From positions 1,075,449 to 1,139,448 of the forward strand of contig CP065011.1 of NCBI GenBank assembly GCA_016699795.1: DNA of 64,000 nt, read 5' to 3'. The DNA is from Candidatus Moraniibacteriota bacterium. GTDB taxonomy: Bacteria > Patescibacteriota > Minisyncoccia > Moranbacterales > GCA-2747515. The notes under the pieces were generated by a model. It did not search any database. It was not told the origin of the DNA and was given only the letters and a program-made list of their open reading frames with translations. Position numbers and translations under genes: made by a program. Within the stretch, counting starts at the first letter, position 1. Every line of letters starts with the position of its first letter. Positions 29,317 through 40,914 of the stretch are shown piece after piece.

Positions 29317-30504
29317 TTATTCTTCTTGAAACGCTTGGGAGAGGACGGATTGTTCGAGGGAGGTGAGACTATGCGTGTTTTGAATATGAAGTTCTCGAAG
29401 TTTTTTGGCTTTCTCCGATATCGCATCTAGTCGATCAACGATTTCTTTTTGTTCAGAAAGAGATGGGAGAGGGATTTTTATTTTTTTAAGTATTGTTTGA
29501 CTTAAATTTGGCTGAGCACCACCCCACGCCTTCAACAAAATATCATTTCTTTTTTTTAAAAGAAAATAATACAAATATTTATTATTTAATTTTTCTTTAT
29601 TCACAGTCATTCCTGCTATTGCTTGGTTTGTGCTCGCATCAATTCCAAGTATACCCGTCTTACCAGCCGTAGCACCATACATAGCAAATAAAACCGCTCC
29701 CTTGGAAAAGATTTTCGCACTACTTTTTTGCACAGCTTCTTTTGAAATTTTTTCTTTTGAATCCAAAATATTTACAGAATCTTTCAATTCTCCTGATTTT
29801 AACCATACAATATCTCCTTTATAATAACTTTCCATTGATCGCTTTGGAGTACCTCCGCTTGTCATTTTTAAAATCGAAGAATTTCCCAACTCTTTTTCCT
29901 CCCACCCTTTCTCTTTTCCTCCCGCAAATATTTTTGAAAGTTCGGCGGGAAGGAGCTGATTGATATCCGACAATGCTTCTTCATTGATTCGTTTGGCGTT
30001 TTGTATCTCCCCCAAAACCCTCTCTAACCTCTTCACAATCCTCTTTTGCTCTTCCAAAGAAGGAAGCGGGATTTCTATTTCCGAACATTTACTTTTATTT
30101 ATAATTGGCACAGTTGTTTTAGAAGATTTACTTTCAAAATCTTTTATCTTAGTCTGAAGAATGTAATATAAATATTCTGAATCTACCAAATTTTTAATAG
30201 GAACAAATGAATTAATTTGTTGATTTGTAGCCATTTCTTTCTTGGCTATGCTCAATTTTCCGATATTACCAATGCAACTCATTAAAACTGATCCTGACGA
30301 TATCCTTCTAATTCCAGACTCATAAAAACCCTTGTTTGATAATTTTTTCTTTGTTTCCAAAATATACTTCCCTTGATCTAAGTCTGATGGTCCTGCCCAC
30401 AAATAAGAATTTCCATAATAATCAATAATAGAAGTCTTTGGAGTATTCCCCGTTATAATCTCACACACTTCCCCAAGTTTTTTTCTTTGCCAATTATTTT
30501 TCAT
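29317..30504 (-). CDS. hsdS: Type I restriction-modification specificity subunit
   Basis: Two target-recognition domains, each followed by a conserved coiled-coil repeat (LPSLEEQKRIVKRLE; LPSLSEQKEIVDRLD). N-terminal KLGEVCEIITGNTP. Confidence 0.9.
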   Translation of the reverse strand: MKNNWQRKKLGEVCEIITGNTPKTSIIDYYGNSYLWAGPSDLDQGKYILETKKKLSNKGFYESGIRRISSGSVLMSCIGNIGKLSIAKKEMATNQQINSFVPIKNLVDSEYLYYILQTKIKDFESKSSKTTVPIINKSKCSEIEIPLPSLEEQKRIVKRLERVLGEIQNAKRINEEALSDINQLLPAELSKIFAGGKEKGWEEKELGNSSILKMTSGGTPKRSMESYYKGDIVWLKSGELKDSVNILDSKEKISKEAVQKSSAKIFSKGAVLFAMYGATAGKTGILGIDASTNQAIAGMTVNKEKLNNKYLYYFLLKKRNDILLKAWGGAQPNLSQTILKKIKIPLPSLSEQKEIVDRLDAISEKAKKLRELHIQNTHSLTSLEQSVLSQAFQEE

Positions 30505-31129
30505 AATGCTTTTTCATGTGTGGAATAAGATTGTCAAAAACATCAATTATTGAGGTTACTGACATTTCCATAAGTGAATTATTTTCAATTTTTTCTCCAC
30601 CTAAACTTTTTGGATGCACAGTATTTCGCAAGGCAACGAGGTCTTGTAAATATTTAATTGCAATATCGGTTTTAAAAAATTTAACTTGTTTGTAAAGCTC
30701 TACTAAATATCCTAAACCTAAATTCTTTGACTTTATTTTTTCTTCTGAAACTTTTTTTAAAAAACAATTTGTAGAACCTTTGTTACATTGATATTGCATA
30801 TAATCCAAAAGCAATCCTTCTACAATTGCTCCGACAATCTGGCAAATTACAAATTTATGATTTCTTTTAAAAATCGAATTGGGTTTTAAAAAAGTATATA
30901 TACTCACATGATAATCTAAAGCCATTCTTAATTCTGCAAGATTCTCTTTTAAAGTTTCGTCACAAATAAAGTCAAATACATTTCTATATCCCGTAAGACT
31001 CTTTGGGGAAATTTTTCCGCTTGGTGAATAATCTCTCCATGTACAATATTTGTCTGGTAAAAATTCCAAATTACCATGAACTTTTTCAAAACTTTCTTCC
31101 AATTCTTTCTTTTTCTTTTTCCAATCCAT
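30494..31129 (-). CDS. hypothetical alpha-helical protein embedded in R-M operon (possible HEPN-like; R-x3-H near C-terminus)
   Basis: Start placed at the ATG at 31129, 2 nt after the stop of the upstream gene. The ORF track extends it to 31219. It contains ALRNTVHP, a HEPN-like Arg/His motif with non-canonical spacing, and overlaps the hsdS start by 11 nt, implying translational coupling. Confidence 0.45.
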   Translation of the reverse strand: MDWKKKKKELEESFEKVHGNLEFLPDKYCTWRDYSPSGKISPKSLTGYRNVFDFICDETLKENLAELRMALDYHVSIYTFLKPNSIFKRNHKFVICQIVGAIVEGLLLDYMQYQCNKGSTNCFLKKVSEEKIKSKNLGLGYLVELYKQVKFFKTDIAIKYLQDLVALRNTVHPKSLGGEKIENNSLMEMSVTSIIDVFDNLIPHMKKHYEK

Positions 31130-31131
31130 AT

Positions 31132-31542
31132 TTATTTTTGAGAAAAATACATCAATCCTGTAAATAATGCTGTAAATATAGTTGCCAAACTCACTAAAAA
31201 CCCCATAATAATCTGCCAATTTCTCACAAACCAGTTTTTTGTTTTCTCTCTTCCTTTTGGAGTAAGGAAGAAAGATTGATTCTTAATTTCTCGACCTTCC
31301 AATAAAACCTCCCTCGCTTCCCCCGTCATTCCATCAATATATCCTTCTCGATAGAGATGCGCCAATGCGTTTGTAATATTCCCCGTTCCACAACCTTCTA
31401 ATTTCCATTTTTTAGGAATGGCATTTTGTAATTCAGTTGCATCCGTGTATGCCTTTTCTTTTGTAAGTTCTTCTATAATTCTAAGAACTTGTATGGTGTC
31501 TAGTTCGAAATAACTCATACTGTTTTTCTTATTTAAAGCCAT
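31132..31542 (-). CDS. PadR-like winged-helix protein with C-terminal transmembrane helix
   Basis: The N-terminal YFELDTIQVLRIIEELTKE...ALAHLYREGYIDG...FFLTPKGRE follows the PadR/wHTH pattern (L..L..EG.I...YY.LT..GR). The C-terminus has WQIIMGFLVSLATIFTALFTGLMYF. The ORF track starts at a TTG (31563); the first ATG is at 31542. Confidence 0.45.
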   Translation of the reverse strand: MALNKKNSMSYFELDTIQVLRIIEELTKEKAYTDATELQNAIPKKWKLEGCGTGNITNALAHLYREGYIDGMTGEAREVLLEGREIKNQSFFLTPKGREKTKNWFVRNWQIIMGFLVSLATIFTALFTGLMYFSQK

Positions 31543-31571
31543 TATTTCACAAAATGGTGACAAAATCCAAT

Positions 31572-31701
31572 TTTGGGTGTACTATGTGTGTAGGCGTAAG
31601 TCCTATCAGGGTTGTTCTCGATGTTCCCATCCATCGGTTGGCAAAAGTCGGGACATAACGGGCCTTGTAGGCAGTCGCCCCCTTCTGGGGGTTTTTGTTT
31701 T
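31572..31701 (+). ncRNA. GC-rich ~130-nt structured element ending in an intrinsic terminator (candidate small RNA); identity unknown
   Basis: Sharp local GC rise in an AT-rich genome. It has an internal TGTAGGC direct repeat and several short stems (CGATG/CATCG; GGGC/GCCC). The 3' end is CCCCC-TTCT-GGGGG-TTTTTGTTTT (31678-31701) on the + strand. No protein-coding potential consistent with the neighbours. Confidence 0.3.
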
Positions 31702-32350
31702 ACAAAAACAACTCATCAAACAAAACTTTTTCTCGAAACACACCGAGCCATTCCCTGTCATTTCTTTCATAGTTTCGGAATATTCCCCACGAAAGCATAT
31801 CTACAACTTGTAATCCTCTATTTTCATGAGATTTACAATGGTCAATATCCAATAAAATACTAGGAGCAAGTCTTCCTTCTAATTGCTTTCTAATATACGC
31901 ATTAAATTCTTCTATCTCTGGCTTTCCCATACATCTATCAAGGATGAATTCTACTCTATCGCCAGAATTTCTTTCAAAAGGTATTTGATCTAAGACTTTT
32001 CGTGCAACATAATTATATACACGAGATTTATTTCTTGTCAGTCTTTCGAAGACTTTCTTTTTATTAAGCGTTATCGAATACACACCAAAACGAACATCTT
32101 TTATCTGTTTATAGAAATATTTTTTTATTTCCAAAGTTGTAGAGGAGCCTTTTAATTCTTCTATTTTTCGTTTTTTGCTCTTTGATTTGTTCAATTTTCT
32201 TCTCAATGTCAGACTTACTGCTTTATGAAGTTTCCTATTTGCATCAAGTGAGCTGACTGCGACTATAGTAATAGTAAAAAACTTTGATGGTCGTTTGTTT
32301 ACGAAATCAAAACCAAGATCTCCACTTTCATCTAAATATAAATGCCACAT
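31700..32350 (-). CDS. DUF3800-family protein
   Basis: The N-terminal MWHLYLDESGDLGFDF matches the hallmark (Y/I)(I/L)DESG motif of DUF3800, and the C-terminal LQVVDMLSWGIFRNYE matches its conserved tail. 216 aa. Confidence 0.6.
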   Translation of the reverse strand: MWHLYLDESGDLGFDFVNKRPSKFFTITIVAVSSLDANRKLHKAVSLTLRRKLNKSKSKKRKIEELKGSSTTLEIKKYFYKQIKDVRFGVYSITLNKKKVFERLTRNKSRVYNYVARKVLDQIPFERNSGDRVEFILDRCMGKPEIEEFNAYIRKQLEGRLAPSILLDIDHCKSHENRGLQVVDMLSWGIFRNYERNDREWLGVFREKVLFDELFL

Positions 32351-32502: not shown

Positions 32503-33924
32503 TCATATCTCTTTTTTCAATTCCTCCACCAGTTTCATTATTTCTTTTTCTCTCTCCTCTATCCCTTCAAGAATTTCTTTGGGTTCTCGGTGTATTTCTG
32601 TTTGAGCTGATGCGGGATGTTTACTATCGAGGTTGAAATCTTTTTTTTCTATTTCTTCTCGGGAAACTTTCCAAGCGTATTCGTTTTCCTTTCTATCGTT
32701 CCACCACTTTTTGAGAGGTGTAAATTCCTCATCCGTTATCCCTCGGTTTTTGGTGTATTGAGTCTTGAGATCTTTGGGAAGTGGGAGTTTGTAGTACCAA
32801 ATTTCTTTGGTGGGTTCACCTTTGGTGAAAAAAAGAAGATTCGTGTTTACTCCTGCATACGGACTAAATACCCCTTGCGGAAGTCGAACAATCGTATGAA
32901 GATTGCACGTTTCAAGAAGATGCTTCTTGATTCTCGTGGCAACGCCTTCGGCAAAGAGTACACCATCAGGAAGGACGATTCCCGCTCGTCCCCCATCTCT
33001 CAAAAGATGCACGAAAAGAAAAAGGAATAAAAGCTCTGTCGCTTTGGTTCGAAAGTCCGCAGGAAAGTTTTGCTCTACGCCATCTTTTACCGCTCCACCA
33101 AAAGGAGGATTTGCCACGATAATATCTACACGATCTTTGGCTGTGTATTCTTGATACGATTTGGCAAGCATATCATCATGCTTGATATTGTCGGGAATTT
33201 CTACGCCATGAAGGATGAGATTGGTACTTGCGAGAAGATACGGAAGATGTTTTATTTCGCATCCTCGAATACTCTCGTGAATTTTCTTTCGATCTTCGGT
33301 TGTTTTTTCTTTGGTTTCTTTGAGATATTCTAGAGCGTTTATGAGAAATCCTCCTGTACCACATGCGGGATCAAAAAGAGTTTCTCCTATTTTAGGATCA
33401 AGTGTTTCTATGATGAATTTCGTAAGCGGTCGTGGGGTATAAAATTCTCCATAGCTCCCAGCATTTTGTAGTCCCTTGAGAATCGTTTCATAAATATCAT
33501 TGAGATGGTGGCGATCTTTGTTTTTGGTAAAGTCGATTTCATTTATTTCATTGATCACTTGCCTGAGAAGTGTTCCTGACTTCATATAGTTGTATGCTTC
33601 AGAAAACATTTCCCGAACAAACAAAGCATCTTCCCTTTCTGTTTCGAGTTTTTTGAGTGTAGGGAAAAGCGTTGTATTGACGAAACTCAGAAGCTCTTCT
33701 CCTGTGATTCCCTCTTTGTCACTTGCCCAATTTCGCCATCTGATATTTTCGGGAAAGGGTGAGGAATATGAAAGATTTTCAAGTTCTCGAATTTTTTCTT
33801 GATCATCGAAAATTTTAAGAAACAAGAGCCATACGATTTGTTCGATTCTCTGAGCATCGCCTCCAATTCCTTCATCTTGTCGCATTACATTGCGGATTCG
33901 CTTGATCATTCCTTCTATGGGCAT
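32503..33924 (-). CDS. hsdM: Type I restriction-modification DNA methyltransferase subunit (N6-adenine)
   Basis: SAM-binding FDPACGTGGFL and catalytic NPPFGG. The N-terminal HsdM helical domain is present. 473 aa. Confidence 0.9.
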   Translation of the reverse strand: MPIEGMIKRIRNVMRQDEGIGGDAQRIEQIVWLLFLKIFDDQEKIRELENLSYSSPFPENIRWRNWASDKEGITGEELLSFVNTTLFPTLKKLETEREDALFVREMFSEAYNYMKSGTLLRQVINEINEIDFTKNKDRHHLNDIYETILKGLQNAGSYGEFYTPRPLTKFIIETLDPKIGETLFDPACGTGGFLINALEYLKETKEKTTEDRKKIHESIRGCEIKHLPYLLASTNLILHGVEIPDNIKHDDMLAKSYQEYTAKDRVDIIVANPPFGGAVKDGVEQNFPADFRTKATELLFLFLFVHLLRDGGRAGIVLPDGVLFAEGVATRIKKHLLETCNLHTIVRLPQGVFSPYAGVNTNLLFFTKGEPTKEIWYYKLPLPKDLKTQYTKNRGITDEEFTPLKKWWNDRKENEYAWKVSREEIEKKDFNLDSKHPASAQTEIHREPKEILEGIEEREKEIMKLVEELKKEI

Positions 33925-33927
33925 ACG

Positions 33928-36285
33928 CTATTTTTGTTGTTGGTAAATATGATTTTGTATTTCTTGTACCGCTTCGAGATAGCGATCACGACCACCAAAA
34001 GCTTCGACGATTTCAAATTGTGATCCGAATGTTATAAACGGAGCGACTTTGAGATCTTCTATTCCATCGATTGCTTCTACTCCCTGATCAGCATATTTTT
34101 CCAAAAGAGCTTCGATAACTTTTTGTGCCATTCCTTCATATTTTGTGAAAATGTCTCGTTTTTTTACTTCATCAACTCGTTCTTTTCTTGTAAGCGGTTT
34201 CTTGCCATAGGCAAGGTGCATAATAATATCAAATTCATCTATGTCTTCCATTCCGATTTCTTTTTTGAGTTCGTCAAAAAGTATTCCTTGTTCGATAAGC
34301 TCTTGTATAAGAGTTGTTTTGCGAATGTCTTTATTCCAGTCATTGAGAAAATCTTCTAAATTTTGATATCGATTTTTGAGTTGTTCACTCGCATAGGTTA
34401 TGAGAGATTCTGTAGTGAGCTTTCCTGTTTTTGGATCAATAATAGAAACGACACGATGTATCACATTGAAATCTACTTGTCCTTCTTGTATAACAATTCT
34501 CGTTTTCTTTTTTTCTTCCTCTTCATCTCTTGGAAGAAGTATTTCTTCTTCAGGATATTCTTCTCGTATTTCTTCGGGAGTTTGAGAAGTTTCGTTTATT
34601 TCTTTGGGATCAAGTTCCTCGCTTTCATTGTCTTTTATAATAGCTCGAACGGGCTCACCATCAAAATCTTTATCAGCAAAAAGTCGAGTTGCACCCGAAA
34701 AATCAAGAATAGTAAAATAGTATTTATCAAAATCACTATTGATTCTCGTTCCTCGTCCAATAATTTGCTTAAATTTGGTCATAGAGTTTATGGCACTGTC
34801 AAGAATGATCAATCGACATGTTTGTGCATCTACTCCCGTAGTAAGAAGTTCTGATGTCGTTACAATCGTTGGATAGGGAGATTCGGGGTTGATGAAATTT
34901 TCTATTTCTCTTTTACCCTCTTCTTCATCTCCCGTCATACGCATAATATAGCGACGATTCTTTTTCATCTCTTGGGGATTCCTCTGGACAAGTGCCTGTC
35001 GCATTCGTTCAGCATGTTCGATATTGGCACAAAAGATAATCGTTTTTTGCATGGGGTCAGTCTCTTGAAGATACTCGGTTATTTTATCAGCTACTTCATT
35101 GATACGATCTTCGACAATAATTTTCTTGTTATAATCCGAAACATTGTATACACCATCTTCTATACGATCGCCATCTTGATCTTTTATATATGCATCGGGA
35201 CGCCATTCAATATCTTTGTCCATTATGTAGCGAACAACTCGATAAGGAGCAAGAAAACCATCTTCTATTCCTTGCTTGAGGCTATAGGTATAGACGGGTT
35301 CTCCAAAATATTTATAATTGTCTGCACCTTCTATGGATTTCGGGGTAGCGGTAAGTCCTATATGCGTTGCGTGAGAAAAATAATCCAGGACCTCTCGCCA
35401 TGTTCCATCTTCATTGATCCCTCCTCGATGACACTCGTCGATAACGACAAGATCAAAAAAGTCCTGAGAAAACTCTCGAAAAAGTTGCTTTTCCTCTTCG
35501 TTTCCTGTTATACCTTGGTACAAAGAAATATAGACTTCATACGAATGATCTGCTTTTCTATTTTTGATAAGTGTCATTTTTTCTCCAAAGGGACGGAAAT
35601 CTTTTTGCATTGTCTGGTATGCAAGAGCCTTTCTATCTACAAGAAAAAGAATTCTCTTCTTTGTTCGAGATTTCCAAAGACGATATATAATCTGAAAAGC
35701 AGTATACGTTTTCCCTGTTCCTGTCGCCATCACAAGCATCATCCGTTTCTTTCCTTTGGCAACATGTTCAACAACCTCATTAACAGCTCTTGTTTGAAAA
35801 TATCGGGGAGTTCGTCCACTTGTGTCTATAAAATATTCTTCAGCAACAATGCCTTTTTCTTCTTCGGTTTGAATACCCTTTACTCTAAGATATCGCTCAT
35901 AGAGTTTTTCAGGAGTTGGAAAATTATCCATTTCGATCATAGTTTCTTTCCCTGTAGAAAAATCATATTCCACAAAAGCATCTCCGTTGGTCGCATAACA
36001 AAAAGGAAGTCCTATTTTTTCAGCGTATTTTTTCGCCTGCTCTAATCCATCGAAAACTCTATGTTCATTATCTTTTGCTTCAATTATTGCAAGAGGAATA
36101 TTTGATTTATATTGTAATATATAATCAGCTCGTAATGGTTTACCTCGAGAAACTACAGTTCCACGAACAATAATTCGCCCATCAGTAAAACTCACTTCTC
36201 TTCGTATTTGAGAAGGTTTCCATCCAGACTTTTCAAGGGATGGATCAATTTTTTGTGCTCGTATATCTTCTTCAGAATATTTCAT
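33928..36285 (-). CDS. hsdR: Type I restriction enzyme R subunit (endonuclease/helicase)
   Basis: N-terminal PD-(D/E)xK nuclease region (AIIEAKD), then an SF2 helicase with Walker A (MATGTGKTYTA) and DEAH-like (DECHRG). Its stop is 1-3 nt from the hsdM start. Confidence 0.9.
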   Translation of the reverse strand: MKYSEEDIRAQKIDPSLEKSGWKPSQIRREVSFTDGRIIVRGTVVSRGKPLRADYILQYKSNIPLAIIEAKDNEHRVFDGLEQAKKYAEKIGLPFCYATNGDAFVEYDFSTGKETMIEMDNFPTPEKLYERYLRVKGIQTEEEKGIVAEEYFIDTSGRTPRYFQTRAVNEVVEHVAKGKKRMMLVMATGTGKTYTAFQIIYRLWKSRTKKRILFLVDRKALAYQTMQKDFRPFGEKMTLIKNRKADHSYEVYISLYQGITGNEEEKQLFREFSQDFFDLVVIDECHRGGINEDGTWREVLDYFSHATHIGLTATPKSIEGADNYKYFGEPVYTYSLKQGIEDGFLAPYRVVRYIMDKDIEWRPDAYIKDQDGDRIEDGVYNVSDYNKKIIVEDRINEVADKITEYLQETDPMQKTIIFCANIEHAERMRQALVQRNPQEMKKNRRYIMRMTGDEEEGKREIENFINPESPYPTIVTTSELLTTGVDAQTCRLIILDSAINSMTKFKQIIGRGTRINSDFDKYYFTILDFSGATRLFADKDFDGEPVRAIIKDNESEELDPKEINETSQTPEEIREEYPEEEILLPRDEEEEKKKTRIVIQEGQVDFNVIHRVVSIIDPKTGKLTTESLITYASEQLKNRYQNLEDFLNDWNKDIRKTTLIQELIEQGILFDELKKEIGMEDIDEFDIIMHLAYGKKPLTRKERVDEVKKRDIFTKYEGMAQKVIEALLEKYADQGVEAIDGIEDLKVAPFITFGSQFEIVEAFGGRDRYLEAVQEIQNHIYQQQK

Positions 36286-36314
36286 TATTTTAGATATTTA
36301 ACAGATATACCCCC

Positions 36315-36425
36315 ATCCTACTCCTCCCCCAAGCCAAGATCAAGGAAAAAAAGCTATTTTTCTTTCCTCTTATATTTTTTATTTTAAAAATGAAAAAAAG
36401 CTTAGCTCCCCTTCTTATTTTTTCA
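36315..36425. repeat. ~111-bp direct repeat, copy 1 (partner at 38775..38885, ~92% identity)
   Basis: Direct base-by-base comparison: atcctactcct(c/g)cc(c/t)caagcca(a/g)(g/a)atcaaggaaaaaaagct...aaaagcttagctcc(c/a)cttcttattttttcag. The copy includes the last codons (LKK-stop) of the RhuM-Doc gene. Confidence 0.85.
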
Positions 36426-37374
36426 GCAATTGCAAAATTAACCCGATCATTTTGTCTTTATCTTTGGGATCGCTCTCGGCAACCAAGAGTGTAAGAGCTG
36501 TCAGTGCTTGGGGTGACATTTTGTCTTTGTGTAATATTCCCACTTTGTTCAAAAACCAAACAAAGGCAAACGCTCCACTTCTTTTGTTGCCATCGGTAAA
36601 TGGATGATTTTTGACGAAAAAATAAAGGAGATGTGCGGATTTTTCTTCCAGAGTTTCATATGCATCACGTCCAAAGAAAGATTGAAAAACATTACCCGAA
36701 ATACCAGAAACTGCATCTTTTTGTTTTTCTTGAGCGAATAGTTCTGTTGCTTCTTCTTTCCTTTGTAAATTATATTTCAATGTTGCGATAGCATTTTCTA
36801 ATTCTTTGGCTGTTATTTTTGCTTGTTTTTTGGTCATTCCCCTTTTCGGAAAAGTTGACGTGTCATAGGCATTGAGCGATAACCACGTATCAGCAAACAT
36901 TTTCACAAGCTCCAACGTATCTCCAGCTTTAACATTTCCATTTTTTGGCAAAAGTTTTTGAACCGATTCGATCGCGCGTAGAAATTCATCGTAATTTTTG
37001 GTAATACGTTTTTTGTTTATCGTGTATCCCGTGACAATATGTTGACGTAAAGTCTTGGTCGCCCATTGACGAAATTTTGTAGCATTTACCGAGTTTACAC
37101 GATACCCCACAGAAAGAATCACATCGAGGTCAAAATATTCCACTTGATATGTTTTTCCATCACTGGCAGTTGTTGCAAAAAATGCAACAACTGAATCTCT
37201 GTGTAATTCTTCCTCTTTGAATATATTTTTTATATGACGTGAAATAACTGATTTGTCACGACCAAAAAGATCAGCAATTTGTTGCAAACTTGCCCAAAGG
37301 GTTTCTTTTTTTAGATCACCTTTAAACTCTATTTCACCATTTTTCGACTGAAAAATAATAATCTCTTTTTTCAT
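36415..37374 (-). CDS. RhuM-family protein with C-terminal Fic/Doc domain (Doc-type toxin motif)
   Basis: The N-terminal half resembles RhuM (IADLFGRDKSVISRHIKNIF...ATTASDGKTYQVEYFDLDVILSVGYRVNS..ATKFRQWAT). The C-terminal half carries HPFTDGNKRSGAFAF, the Doc/Fic HxFx(D/N)GNKR motif. Confidence 0.7.
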   Translation of the reverse strand: MKKEIIIFQSKNGEIEFKGDLKKETLWASLQQIADLFGRDKSVISRHIKNIFKEEELHRDSVVAFFATTASDGKTYQVEYFDLDVILSVGYRVNSVNATKFRQWATKTLRQHIVTGYTINKKRITKNYDEFLRAIESVQKLLPKNGNVKAGDTLELVKMFADTWLSLNAYDTSTFPKRGMTKKQAKITAKELENAIATLKYNLQRKEEATELFAQEKQKDAVSGISGNVFQSFFGRDAYETLEEKSAHLLYFFVKNHPFTDGNKRSGAFAFVWFLNKVGILHKDKMSPQALTALTLLVAESDPKDKDKMIGLILQLLKK

Positions 37375-37475: not shown

Positions 37476-38519
37476 TTATTTTTCCTCACTATCCGGTACG
37501 AGTTCCAAAAACTTATCAAAATCACTCCTAAAAATTTTATCTTGGGTGATGCGATATATTTCAAACTGTGTCTCTGCGTGGAGCTTGGCTTCTTCGTGGG
37601 TAATTTTACCAACGCCGGTCAAAATCTCTGCTTCGTTGAATTCCAAGAAACCATCCAAACGATTCGCCCAATCCTCCATCGTCATCGGGATACGGCGTTC
37701 TGCCTGAAGCTCGGCATAATCAAGGTACATTGAAACAAGACGCTCCAAAAAATCCATTTCTTTTTGAGTCAGATAGTTTTTTGCGATAGACACATCAAAC
37801 CTTTGTATTTTTCCTTCTGGTGCAGCCTCCCACGAGGTGAGTCCCATATGCTTTTTTTGCGCATTTGCTCGCTTGACTATAAGTTCAGCCGCGGTGTGCC
37901 TATGTACTGCATAATGAAGCTTATTTTGAACCATTTTGAAGAAATCTTTTGTCGTTTTTGCCGATGAGTCATAATCCACACTTGTTGCATAAATATCGGT
38001 CACTTTCTGATAAAACATTCGCTCACTTAGACGTATTTCTCGTATCAATTGCAACTGGCGATCAAAATATTCATCGGTAAACATGTGACCTTTTTTGAGG
38101 CGCTCTACATCCATCGTCCATCCTTGTATGGTATAGTCCTTGACGATTTGACGTGCCCATTTTCGAAACTGCACAGCACGTTCATTTTCTATCTTGAAAC
38201 CCACTGAAATAATAGCTTGGAGATTGTAATGTGCTGTTTTGTAATTCTTACCATCAGTTGCAGTTATTAAGTATTGCTTAATAACTGAATCGTTTAGCTC
38301 ACCATCTTCAAAAAGTTTTTTCAAGTGCTGGTTTATTGCCGGCACGCTAACGCCGTACAATTCCGCCATCATCTTTTGTGTCATCCAAATATTTTCATCT
38401 TCATAGCGCATTTCGATGGATTGCTCCACGTCACCTTTTGTGGCTATAAACGTCAAATATTCAGCAGTAGCTGATGTATGCGATGATACGTGTAACTTTT
38501 TTCCCATTATCTTCTTCAT
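37476..38519 (-). CDS. RhuM-family protein (second paralogue, no Fic motif)
   Basis: ITATDGKNYKTAHYNLQAIISVGFKIENERAVQFRKWARQIVKDYTIQGWTMDVERLKKG is the conserved RhuM core. 347 aa. Confidence 0.7.
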   Translation of the reverse strand: MKKIMGKKLHVSSHTSATAEYLTFIATKGDVEQSIEMRYEDENIWMTQKMMAELYGVSVPAINQHLKKLFEDGELNDSVIKQYLITATDGKNYKTAHYNLQAIISVGFKIENERAVQFRKWARQIVKDYTIQGWTMDVERLKKGHMFTDEYFDRQLQLIREIRLSERMFYQKVTDIYATSVDYDSSAKTTKDFFKMVQNKLHYAVHRHTAAELIVKRANAQKKHMGLTSWEAAPEGKIQRFDVSIAKNYLTQKEMDFLERLVSMYLDYAELQAERRIPMTMEDWANRLDGFLEFNEAEILTGVGKITHEEAKLHAETQFEIYRITQDKIFRSDFDKFLELVPDSEEK

Positions 38520-38774
38520 ATGTTCGTAGTGTATTGGTATTCTCGAATAGTATTTTCAGATTTACTTTTTCGCGTTGAGTTATTTTTTGGATTTCATTCT
38601 TATCTTTTATACTCTTTCCCAAATTAGATTACGTAGAGTGAAATTTTGAAATTTCGAGCGAAAATCGTAAAAATCAAGAAGTGCTATCAAGATAACACAA
38701 TGAGATTTTTATCGATTTGCATCCGAAATAGTAAGGTTTCACACGTACTATGGTTTGGGAAAAAATATATTTCA

Positions 38775-38885
38775 ATCCTACTCCTGCCTCAAGCCAAAAT
38801 CAAGGAAAAAAAGCTGTTTTTTCCCTCTTATATTTTTTATTTTAAAAATGAAAGAAAAAGCTTAGCTCCACTTCTTATTTTTTCA
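38775..38885. repeat. ~111-bp direct repeat, copy 2 (partner at 36315..36425)
   Basis: See copy 1. This copy includes the last codons (LKK-stop) of the FHA-domain gene 38875..40914. Confidence 0.85.
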
Positions 38886-40914
38886 GTGACATCCTTCTCT
38901 TTATTTCGGGGAAAAACCCATAGTCTTTTCGAAAGTTAAAAGCGGGATTTTGAGGATCAACTTGATATTTTAAACATACTCTAGAAAATACCGAATCGAA
39001 ATTAAAATTTGGATCAGTCATTGCATGACGAAAGTTTCTCGCTTCCATAAAAACTTCAGCAAGAATTTTAGTACGTATAGTTCCAAACGATTCATTTCGA
39101 AACAATGGCTCCTCCGCAAATCCAACTCCCAACATTTTTTCGTTTCGTTGATTTTTTACTTCAACAGTAAAACGAGGAACGCCCGTTTCATCGAATCCCT
39201 CTATATTATTTTTGTGTAAATTTTCCAAAATCTGTAAGACTTTTTGTTCTTCTTCGGCATCAAAATAAATCACCATTTTATCAAAACGATTAAATGCCTT
39301 TGCATTTCCGTACAGAGGAATTTTCATTTGACTATGCAAACCGCTCTCATGAAATGCCTCAACTGTCTTAGAAAAAATTTGTTTAACATATTCTGGCTTT
39401 AAATTAAAATAAAGTCTTCCAAGAGAACTCTGATTACGAAAACCTCCATTTACATTACAATAAAGCCAATATCCATTATCTCCGATCATTACCCCCTTCC
39501 CCTTTTGAGATTCTTCCTTTAAATTCTCTCTCATTTTTTTAATTTGAGTAGAATATTCCCATGCCCACCGCTGAACAGTTGCATCATTTTCTTTATATCT
39601 GGGATTATCAATGTTTTTATTATAAAAATCATGATAAAAAAGCTCATCTAAATCACGCCCTTGTTGCAAATCTCTTTCAATTTCCAATTCATGTTTTTTG
39701 GTAAACTCAAAAAATTTTTCGATAGCGAGTTCTTTTTCAGAACTAGATTTTTGAATCTCAATTTGTTCTTTATTTAATCGCCTCGGCCTTTCTACTTGTA
39801 ACGTAGTCCCATTCATAGAGCCTACATCTTCTATAAGCAATTTCTCATCTCGCAACTCTATTCTAAGATGAGCGCGCGAAACAGTATCGGGAAATTGAAA
39901 CCGAAACGCATTATTTCTACCAATAGTAAAGGGTTCGTTTTTTCTAATTCCTTTGTAGCCCATTCTCGGATTTTCTTGATCAAACGTCGCAGGATCAATA
40001 AGAAGATAATCAGCATTCCAACGCAAATCGTTTCGCACATCAATAATTTGCAAGTATTTATTGGCAAGATATACATCAATAGGTATTCCCGAATATTCAA
40101 TTTCTTTCTCTGATCCTTTTAAATTAAACCGCTCTGACAAAATTTCTTTTCCGGAAGTTCCTATTTCCTCTTGTAGCTCTTCTAAAGCTAAGCCGGATTT
40201 TTCTTTAATTCTTTTGACAGCATTTTCAATATCCGAATCAGCACTCTCCGGAAATGCTTGTTTCCAAATTTCAAAAAATGTTTCTTTTATTTGAATTATT
40301 CTTCTTGCTTCATCAGGAGTAAATTCTTGATTCATTGCTGAGAGAATATTCTTCTTTACATAATCTCGCTGAGTTGCTGAAATAGTATGGGGATCTGCTT
40401 TTCTTATCGAAGTAGCAAGGTTTCCGAAAATTCTTATTTTATTTTCTTCAGAAGATGTAGCACCAAATTTCTCATATATTGGACCCAATGCATTTATAAT
40501 GCCAGAAACAGCTTCTCTTTTATACTGTACTTTTTTTTCTTGAACAATTTGATTATATTGTTCTTGTGTCCATCCTTTTTGAAAAAAAACTCCTATTTGT
40601 TCATCGACAACTTCACACAAATCAGTCTGCATATCTTCAATGATTGGATATTTTTTTCGTAATGATTCTACAAAATGATCCACATTGAGTGCATATAGAT
40701 CTTCTTGATTTGGAAAATAACCACGCTCCACCAAAGTCAAAAGCCTTAACGCTCTTTCATTTATTTTTATTGTCTCCACAGCTTTAGTAAAGAAGTCTTT
40801 TTCTGATACAGCTTGTGATTCTGATAAAGTAGAATTAGGCTTCTCGATAAATTCCGAAGAAGATGGGTTTTGAAATTGTTTTATTCTTTCTTCCATATTC
40901 TCTATATTACACAA
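38875..40914 (-). CDS. large FHA-domain protein of unknown function
   Basis: The central FTIGRNNAFRFQFPDTVSRAHLRIELRDEKLLIEDVGSMNGTTLQ is a canonical FHA pattern (G-R...S/T..H......D.GS.NGT). The rest is an ~330-aa helical N-terminus and a ~250-aa uncharacterised C-terminal domain. Confidence 0.55.
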   Translation of the reverse strand: MCNIENMEERIKQFQNPSSSEFIEKPNSTLSESQAVSEKDFFTKAVETIKINERALRLLTLVERGYFPNQEDLYALNVDHFVESLRKKYPIIEDMQTDLCEVVDEQIGVFFQKGWTQEQYNQIVQEKKVQYKREAVSGIINALGPIYEKFGATSSEENKIRIFGNLATSIRKADPHTISATQRDYVKKNILSAMNQEFTPDEARRIIQIKETFFEIWKQAFPESADSDIENAVKRIKEKSGLALEELQEEIGTSGKEILSERFNLKGSEKEIEYSGIPIDVYLANKYLQIIDVRNDLRWNADYLLIDPATFDQENPRMGYKGIRKNEPFTIGRNNAFRFQFPDTVSRAHLRIELRDEKLLIEDVGSMNGTTLQVERPRRLNKEQIEIQKSSSEKELAIEKFFEFTKKHELEIERDLQQGRDLDELFYHDFYNKNIDNPRYKENDATVQRWAWEYSTQIKKMRENLKEESQKGKGVMIGDNGYWLYCNVNGGFRNQSSLGRLYFNLKPEYVKQIFSKTVEAFHESGLHSQMKIPLYGNAKAFNRFDKMVIYFDAEEEQKVLQILENLHKNNIEGFDETGVPRFTVEVKNQRNEKMLGVGFAEEPLFRNESFGTIRTKILAEVFMEARNFRHAMTDPNFNFDSVFSRVCLKYQVDPQNPAFNFRKDYGFFPEIKRRMSLKK

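Follow-up and report, generated by a model that had tools for sequence, protein, structure and literature searches.

A solitary RhuM-Doc fusion gene within a type I restriction-modification operon of a Candidatus Moraniibacteriota bacterium

According to a review of 2014, all members of the Doc family are toxins of Phd-Doc pairs (PMC4177925). A gene in the genome of a Candidatus Moraniibacteriota bacterium (contig CP065011.1, positions 1,075,449 to 1,139,448, a stretch of 64,000 nucleotides (nt) hereafter called the window) raises the question of what a Doc-type active site does when it is carried without such a partner. The product of this gene joins a RhuM-type N-terminal domain to a Doc-type C-terminal domain in one chain, and the gene lies within a type I restriction-modification (R-M) operon with no antitoxin gene beside it. 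As suggested by our comparative analysis of the sequence, of predicted structures and of related loci, the fusion protein is most likely a mobile, self-contained effector of defence islands.

The fusion protein is 100% identical to a deposited protein (P0001) from a metagenome-assembled genome (MAG) of Candidatus Moraniibacteriota, the exact sequence occurring on one contig only. The initial annotation of the window had placed the Doc motif HPFTDGNKR and a RhuM N-terminal domain in one open reading frame (ORF), and both were recovered by Pfam above the gathering cutoffs: PF13310 (Virulence_RhuM) at residues 61-129 (E-value 1e-20, 74.6 bits against a cutoff of 33.7) and PF02661 (Fic) at residues 227-275 (E 1.8e-11, 45.2 bits against a cutoff of 24), matches that are far beyond chance. 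The protein is not a full-length RhuM, positions 1-78 of 252 in PF13310 being the only ones matched. The PADLOC model PDLC04965, which stands for the candidate system PDC-S23, matches the fusion protein end to end (E 1.1e-111, residues 1-318 on positions 1-324 of 327). Both Pfam domains are present in all 120 best homologues, whose lengths are 316-352 residues; more than 8000 homologues were scored in a word-indexed search, and 686 clusters at 50% identity reach E<=1e-30. The NCBI product name for the homologues, plasmid copies included, is 'virulence protein RhuM/Fic/DOC family protein'. It is near certain that the fusion gene is a member of this widespread RhuM/Fic/DOC family, the PADLOC candidate PDC-S23. 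Its architecture and genomic habit are already on record in the NCBI name, in PDC-S23, in a study of the streptococcal protein BifA and in the remark that Fic/DOC and RhuM coding sequences occur between type I core genes (PMC9881135). A literature search found no paper on PDC-S23 and, on RhuM in connection with defence, passing mentions only. The window gene fits the family pattern in every respect tested, with no structural difference from the other members; what the initial annotation noticed is a correct observation and not a new one, and the novelty of the gene is low because it is a further member of a catalogued family.

The C-terminal motif agrees with the nine-residue Fic/DOC pattern HxFx(D/E/N)(G/A)N(G/K)R and also with its Doc variant HxFx(D/N)(A/G)NKR, with lysine at motif position 8 (K264) and no second arginine. 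Of 73 relatives, 72 retain the form Hx[FL]xDGNKR, and H257, D261, G262, K264 and R265 are invariant in an alignment of 67 sequences with 39-76% identity to the query; as judged from this conservation, the motif is under strong constraint and the active site intact. A profile of the same 67 sequences searched against all PDB sequences revealed 9vzc_A, a 'Death-on-curing family protein' (E 1.7e-9), and P1 Doc (3k33_A, E 0.014), HPFsDGNKR being aligned on HIFNDANKR. In a profile comparison with P1 Doc (E 8.5e-5), in which the Doc query differs from the PDB sequence at one residue, H257, D261, N263, K264 and R265 correspond to H66, D70, N72, K73 and R74. The reading of the motif as a Doc/Fic active site, which the initial annotation had left for an alignment to verify, is borne out in that the His, Asp and Asn-Lys-Arg residues are in register with P1 Doc and the motif sits in a Doc-like fold.

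The fold was approached through an AF2 model of the fusion protein built from 60 homologues. The C-terminal part of the model is all-helical (predicted local distance difference test, pLDDT, 65-85), with six helices at residues 189-205, 221-229, 242-255, 265-277, 288-300 and 303-317. The top Foldseek matches in PDB are P1 Doc chains 3k33_A and 3dd7_A, with probability 1.00 and a template modelling (TM) score of 0.67-0.69 normalised to Doc; the structural alignment has a root-mean-square deviation of 3.5 Å over ~137 columns and ~21-23% identity, the Doc chains being 124 residues long. FICD and other Fic proteins come after Doc among the matches. A six-helix core of the Doc type, instead of one of eight helices, is thereby predicted in a model of medium confidence.

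Three marks have been described that separate Doc from AMPylating Fic proteins, namely the lysine at motif position 8, the six-helix core and kinase chemistry via inverted ATP binding (PMC4177925). The lysine is present in the fusion protein and the six-helix core is predicted for it, and kinase chemistry may be expected: the Lys variant of the motif is held to imply it (PMC4177925), the lysine of Doc forcing an inverted ATP orientation, and therefore the protein is most likely a protein kinase and not an AMP-transferase. P1 Doc, the toxin of the Phd-Doc pair (PDB 3K33, 3DD7), shares the motif with lysine at position 8 and the six-helix core and is the best structural match. By analogy with it the target of phosphorylation by the fusion protein would be a translation factor such as EF-Tu, and growth would stop, so that a translation-arresting kinase is the activity one would predict. 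Unlike P1 Doc, the fusion protein is encoded without a Phd gene and carries an N-terminal extension of 185 residues, made up of the RhuM/Bro-N domain and a conserved helix.

The lack of a Phd-like antitoxin had already been noted in the initial annotation, and it extends from the window to the family. We fetched 80 related loci from one-genome-per-species contigs of many phyla, 72 of them with a complete gene. A classical two-gene toxin-antitoxin system whose antitoxin was missed, in the form of a tiny ORF, an antisense RNA or an opposite-strand gene, might be supposed from the long-held view that Doc toxins are always paired with Phd (PMC4177925) and from the XRE-type helix-turn-helix genes that adjoin the fusion gene upstream in loci L017 and L019 and downstream on a Vibrio plasmid. 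However, no small same-strand ORF is conserved on either side of the fusion gene in the 72 loci, the largest cluster having two members from near-identical genomes, and PADLOC models the family as a single-gene candidate. In the window, nothing beyond an ORF of 28 residues is present in the 101 nt that separate the fusion gene from RhuM upstream, and the 129-nt gap downstream holds no same-strand ORF. Hidden-partner explanations of this kind are very improbable in our judgement. Pfam detected no antitoxin-type domain in any gene within 5 kb, and the immediate neighbours across the related loci are spread over dozens of unrelated Pfam families. A two-gene version with separate RhuM and Fic parts, found on a Lachnospira eligens plasmid, was considered as a split pair and set aside; it is rather an interrupted copy, as suggested by a single in-frame tblastn piece.

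Since the antitoxin is absent, the enzyme would be held inactive within its own chain, with the N-domain or the linker helix as the restraint, or would stay idle for want of its trigger; regulation within the same polypeptide, which the initial annotation had also suggested, is a plausible and natural reading for a solitary gene. In the AF2 model, residues 5-81 of the N-domain form three short strands, a helix-turn-helix and a beta-hairpin wing (pLDDT 70-90). Foldseek matched the N-domain in PDB to winged-helix proteins such as TFE-alpha and the MarR and PadR types, and among viral models to Bro-N, antirepressor and 'repressor domain' proteins (E 6e-6 to 1e-3); a weak Pfam match to the P22 antirepressor N-domain was seen in the RhuM protein encoded next to the fusion gene. 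On the strength of the viral Bro-N/antirepressor and winged-helix matches, the RhuM N-domain shared by the two proteins is a Bro-N-like module that would bind nucleic acid or protein.

The helix that links the N-domain to the Doc domain ends in a near-invariant LxxYD (D171 in 73 of 73 relatives, Y170 in 70 and L167 in 71). It is retained in stand-alone 'Fic family protein' relatives of 179 residues, which begin at about residue 156 of the query, and therefore the Doc unit, preceded by this helix, is also found on its own, with no RhuM N-domain attached. One such gene, on a plasmid of Pseudomonas sp. FeN3W (locus L085, 3971-4510), encodes a protein that matches query residues 156-318 with 40% identity, and it sits in a same-strand array of small uncharacterised genes near a RepB gene. 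Judging by its conservation, the linker helix is the best candidate for a cis-regulatory element, or it may be structural. Precedent for obstruction of the active site within the chain is given by class II and class III Fic proteins such as SoFic and NmFic, single polypeptides without a partner in which an inhibitory helix is part of the chain; these carry HxFx(D/E)GNGRxxR together with the inhibitory motif (S/T)xxxE(G/N), whereas the fusion protein has the Lys variant. A remnant of a HigA/VapI-like helix-turn-helix was also considered at residues 135-181 and rejected, as a weak match to 3trb (E 0.12) with a narrow profile was gone with the 67-sequence profile.

The neighbouring gene encodes a full-length RhuM protein, which NCBI gives as 343 residues long. 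The initial annotation had described the fusion gene as followed by this Fic-less paralogue and had proposed that the paralogue regulates it in trans. The paralogue does adjoin the fusion gene, and it comes after it in forward coordinates only; with both genes on the minus strand, it is transcriptionally upstream. The two proteins share only the first ~130 residues (30% identity, E 3e-23, the alignment ending at residue 132), and hence the pair is not a recent local duplication. With full-length RhuM proteins in general (PF13310; RhuM of Salmonella SPI-3; PDC-S05) the fusion protein has in common the N-terminal domain of ~130 residues and the habit of occurring with type I R-M genes; unlike in those, the helical C-terminal region (positions 79-252) is replaced by the linker helix and the Doc domain. 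In an AF2 model of the paralogue (pLDDT 59.6) Foldseek found winged-helix matches to the N-domain only and no fold match to the C-domain.

Neutralisation or regulation of the Doc domain in trans by the Fic-less RhuM, in the manner of an antitoxin, would agree with the arrangement in the window, where the genes are same-strand neighbours separated by 101 nt and a single direct repeat encloses them both, and a second case of adjacency was found beside a homologue of 66% identity (P0070). That homologue is, however, the only one with a full RhuM at its side among six close homologues examined with independent gene calls, and the order there is opposite to that in the window. Genes with the RhuM C-terminal region occur in the flanks of only 2 of the 72 loci, and the shared N-domains are no more than 30% identical. 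RhuM (PDC-S05) is extremely common, R-M loci included, and a 14-fold enrichment of RhuM genes around invertible hsdS genes has been described (PMC9881135), so occasional co-location with the fusion gene is expected by chance. The proposal of trans regulation finds no backing in the related loci and has very little chance of being right.

The R-M island of the initial annotation was confirmed: downstream of the fusion gene and on the same strand lie hsdR, hsdM, a DUF3800 gene, two ORFs and hsdS. In the related loci, hsdR is found directly downstream on the same strand in 12 of 72 and hsdS or hsdM directly upstream in 11; at least two type I R-M genes are present in the flanks of 17 loci and any type I R-M gene in those of 21. 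The relatives of the fusion gene sometimes overlap neighbouring hsd genes by 4 nt. Such an overlap, with hsdM, is seen in locus L092 (5454-13892), where a homologue of 74-75% identity is part of a type I operon that runs hsdM, RhuM-Doc, a distinct gene for a Bro-N protein of 282 residues, hsdS, a gene of the 23S_rRNA_IVP family and hsdR. Other neighbours in the related loci include Cas7, RAMP, KwaB, HipA_C and integrases. Among the close homologues, one lies beside DpnI, Mrr and a C5-methylase, one adjoins a PanA-type and one an AbiEii toxin-antitoxin/abortive-infection module. In loci L090 (5665-6753) and L094 (5660-6805) a class-II-like Fic gene (Fic_N and Fic domains, 362-381 residues) stands directly upstream of RhuM-Doc, which makes these loci pairs of different Fic enzymes side by side.

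This association might be read in another way, namely that the protein is no growth-arresting toxin and acts as a DNA-bound regulator or modifier, adjusting the restriction system next to it or other proteins of the host, for example through post-translational modification of HsdR or as a transcription factor with the Fic domain as its sensor, in which case no antitoxin would be needed. The antitoxin is absent throughout the family sample, the N-domain is a winged helix of the Bro-N/repressor kind, and the same-strand position directly before hsdR in the 12 loci, together with the 4-nt overlaps, would also suit a regulator of this sort. Yet more than one type I family is represented among the hsdR partners (EcoEI_R_C in 2 and T1RH-like_C in 5), R-M genes are absent from most loci, and the gene is also carried by itself on plasmids and in a Tn3, so that we regard a regulatory role of this kind as unlikely.

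The mobility of the gene is suggested in the window by a direct repeat of ~115-127 nt (91% identity over 114 nt, blastn E 2e-41), which is present twice only in the 64 kb, at a spacing of 2460 nt, and brackets the RhuM and RhuM-Doc pair. Each copy holds the last three codons and the stop codon of the preceding gene, and a terminator-like hairpin. These features suggest that RhuM and RhuM-Doc arrived as one inserted unit, and the arrangement looks like a cassette inserted by single-crossover recombination. Direct repeats of 30 nt or longer flank 10 of 64 family genes and 8 of 291 controls (odds ratio 6.6, p-value 2.5e-4), the control genes being a crude set from greedy ORF calls; with repeats of at least 75 nt the difference (4 of 64 and 7 of 291) is not significant. 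The repeat-flanked relatives include those of L014, L043, L046, L052, L063 and L077. In L043 and L063 the upstream copy looks, by coordinates only, like a duplicated 5' piece of the downstream hsdR.

Full-length copies were also found in 16 plasmid records, amid small genes of unassigned function, and one plasmid copy, from Legionella, lies directly after a Tn3 transposase as Tn3 cargo. Only one full-length copy was present in 50,697 phage records, and this is a cellular rather than a phage gene. It could be supposed, then, that the gene serves the mobile element which carries it, in the establishment of a plasmid or transposon, in addiction or in anti-defence: the plasmid copies stand in same-strand arrays of small uncharacterised genes, the stand-alone relatives of the Doc unit occur in similar plasmid arrays, one copy follows a transposase, and the flanking direct repeats suggest cassette movement. 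Such a role is distinctly unlikely, however, as the window and many MAG chromosomes present islands of R-M, CRISPR and toxin-antitoxin genes without plasmid or transposon genes, and the gene is nearly absent from phages.

In the reading that we prefer, the fusion protein would be a sensor-effector on a mobile cassette, often placed within type I R-M operons just upstream of hsdR. The Doc-type kinase would stay silent in its own chain until a cue of phage origin, either DNA or protein, is encountered by the N-domain; on release it would act on its translation-factor target, with an effect similar to abortive infection that would serve as a reserve for the restriction system next to it. Stated jointly, that the protein is a self-contained sensor-effector of the kinase type, held off in cis and mobile in defence islands, this reading is put forward tentatively, as falling a little short of probable; it is the mechanism, not the identity, that lowers the confidence of the joint statement.

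Several results weigh against it. Unlike P1 Doc, the fusion protein stays below the cutoff of NCBIfam TIGR01550 (DOC_P1; residues 238-282, 33.0 bits against 38.65), and its kinase activity and EF-Tu target are drawn by analogy only. The AF2 model is mediocre as a whole, with a mean pLDDT of 67, a predicted TM score of 0.51 and a linker pLDDT below 50. The inhibitory motif (S/T)xxxE(G/N) was not found by pattern search in the fusion protein or in its RhuM neighbour. A Phd-like helix was considered as well, as FADTWLSLN of the linker helix resembles FASLFDTLD of Phd by eye, and it was rejected when a profile comparison with Phd gave only E 0.38 in an unrelated region. The family's defence function has the status of a candidate in PDC-S23, for which toxicity, target and anti-phage effect are predictions. 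About three quarters of the related loci have no type I R-M genes nearby; as most loci are without R-M genes and the plasmid copies stand among small uncharacterised genes, the function of the gene need not be tied directly to restriction. Finally, for BifA, the one studied family member, the reported action is on a protein of a eukaryotic host and not in phage defence.

For BifA (SeseC_01334) of Streptococcus equi subsp. zooepidemicus, secretion, an action on human moesin and a rise in phosphorylation of the target have been reported; the RhuM domain of BifA is dispensable and H247 is essential (PMC6529018). Compared with the fusion protein by published description, BifA has the same layout, RhuM at the N-terminus and Fic at the C-terminus, with the catalytic histidine at H247 where the fusion protein has H257. 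One might suspect from this layout, and from the need of H247 for the effects of BifA on moesin phosphorylation (PMC6529018), that the fusion protein is likewise a virulence effector that is secreted and works on a eukaryotic host. But it comes, unlike BifA, from a bacterium of the candidate phyla radiation, as a gene of a Candidatus Moraniibacteriota MAG set in an R-M operon, its N-terminus does not resemble a signal peptide, and its relatives are spread over many phyla, in free-living bacteria from marine, groundwater and sediment habitats. Of the explanations considered, a virulence effector is the least probable, to a degree that makes it hardly credible.

Returning to the sensor-effector, a working analogy for how such a gene could provide a second line of defence is offered by the PrrC and RloC anticodon nucleases, translation-targeting effectors in type I R-M operons (PMC12707154). 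The fusion gene, embedded in a type I R-M operon, has the placement of an R-M guardian; unlike PrrC and RloC, to which it has no relation in sequence or fold, it belongs to a family most members of which are not beside R-M genes. In its most specific form the proposal would be that an antitoxin-free Doc-type kinase is held off in the chain by the N-domain or the LxxYD helix, acts as a PrrC-like guardian of type I restriction that fires on a phage cue or on loss of restriction, and spreads between R-M operons as a repeat-flanked cassette through single-crossover insertion upstream of hsdR. This version is possible, if on the whole rather unlikely in all its details.

The remaining features of the island are listed in Table 1. 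Read along the minus strand, the genes come in the order FHA/HopA1, RhuM, RhuM-Doc fusion, hsdR, hsdM, DUF3800, two ORFs and hsdS. The type I R-M operon is split between hsdM and hsdS by the DUF3800 gene and the two unmatched ORFs (30494-32350 in all), which may be further inserted cargo. At the other end, a gene for a protein with an FHA and a HopA1 domain adjoins the cassette of the predicted kinase; a homologue of it was found in none of the 80 related loci, and therefore its adjacency is probably incidental. Outside this block of ~9 kb the window carries ordinary genes, among them those for a GNAT protein, an M23 peptidase, MsrB, an ABC-F ATPase, an amidase and glycosyltransferases.

Table 1. 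Coordinates of the RhuM-Doc fusion gene, its parts and its surroundings in the window (position 1 is the first nucleotide of the window; aa, amino acids).
Feature	Position	Strand	Basis or remark
RhuM-N/Doc fusion gene, 319 aa	36415..37374	-	complete ATG ORF; Pfam RhuM and Fic; PADLOC PDC-S23
RhuM/Bro-N-like winged-helix domain, aa 1-130	36985..37374	-	Pfam, pairwise alignment, AF2, Foldseek
Conserved linker helix, aa 153-171, TLELVKMFADTWLSLNAYD	36862..36918	-	between RhuM-N and Doc domains; low pLDDT
Doc-like six-helix Fic core, aa ~185-319	36418..36822	-	AF2 model, Foldseek, family profile against PDB
Catalytic motif HPFTDGNKR, aa 257-265	36580..36606	-	translation
Full-length RhuM, 347 aa, Fic-less	37476..38519	-	PF13310 E 4.7e-104; PADLOC PDC-S05 E 1e-143; P0121 100% identical
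Direct repeat, right copy	36300..36426	.	last 12 nt of fusion gene and intergenic region before hsdR
Direct repeat, left copy	38760..38886	.	last 12 nt of FHA/HopA1 gene and region upstream of RhuM
hsdR, EcoAI/type IB family	33928..36285	-	NF046051 1049.9 bits; Pfam ResIII, EcoEI_R_C, HSDR_N; directly downstream of fusion gene
hsdM	32503..33924	-	Pfam N6_Mtase E 1.4e-72, HsdM_N
DUF3800 gene	31700-32350	-	between hsdM and hsdS
ORF, 143 aa	31132-31563	-	no match in Pfam, NCBIfam or PADLOC
ORF, 241 aa	30494-31219	-	no match in Pfam, NCBIfam or PADLOC
hsdS	29317..30504	-	Pfam Methylase_S in two stretches, E 3.9e-58
FHA and HopA1 protein, 679 aa	38875-40914	-	FHA, phosphothreonine-binding; HopA1, effector-family domain

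The value of the window gene alone is modest, its family and the association with defence islands being already catalogued. For the family it means that solitary fusion proteins with a Doc-type active site are also in very wide circulation, beyond the statement that confines Doc to Phd-Doc pairs (PMC4177925). If the control and the trigger of the fusion protein were worked out, they would assign a function to the long-mysterious RhuM N-domain, make it possible to test whether back-up effectors are a regular component of type I R-M operons, and reveal a new, antitoxin-free way of silencing a Fic/Doc toxin.

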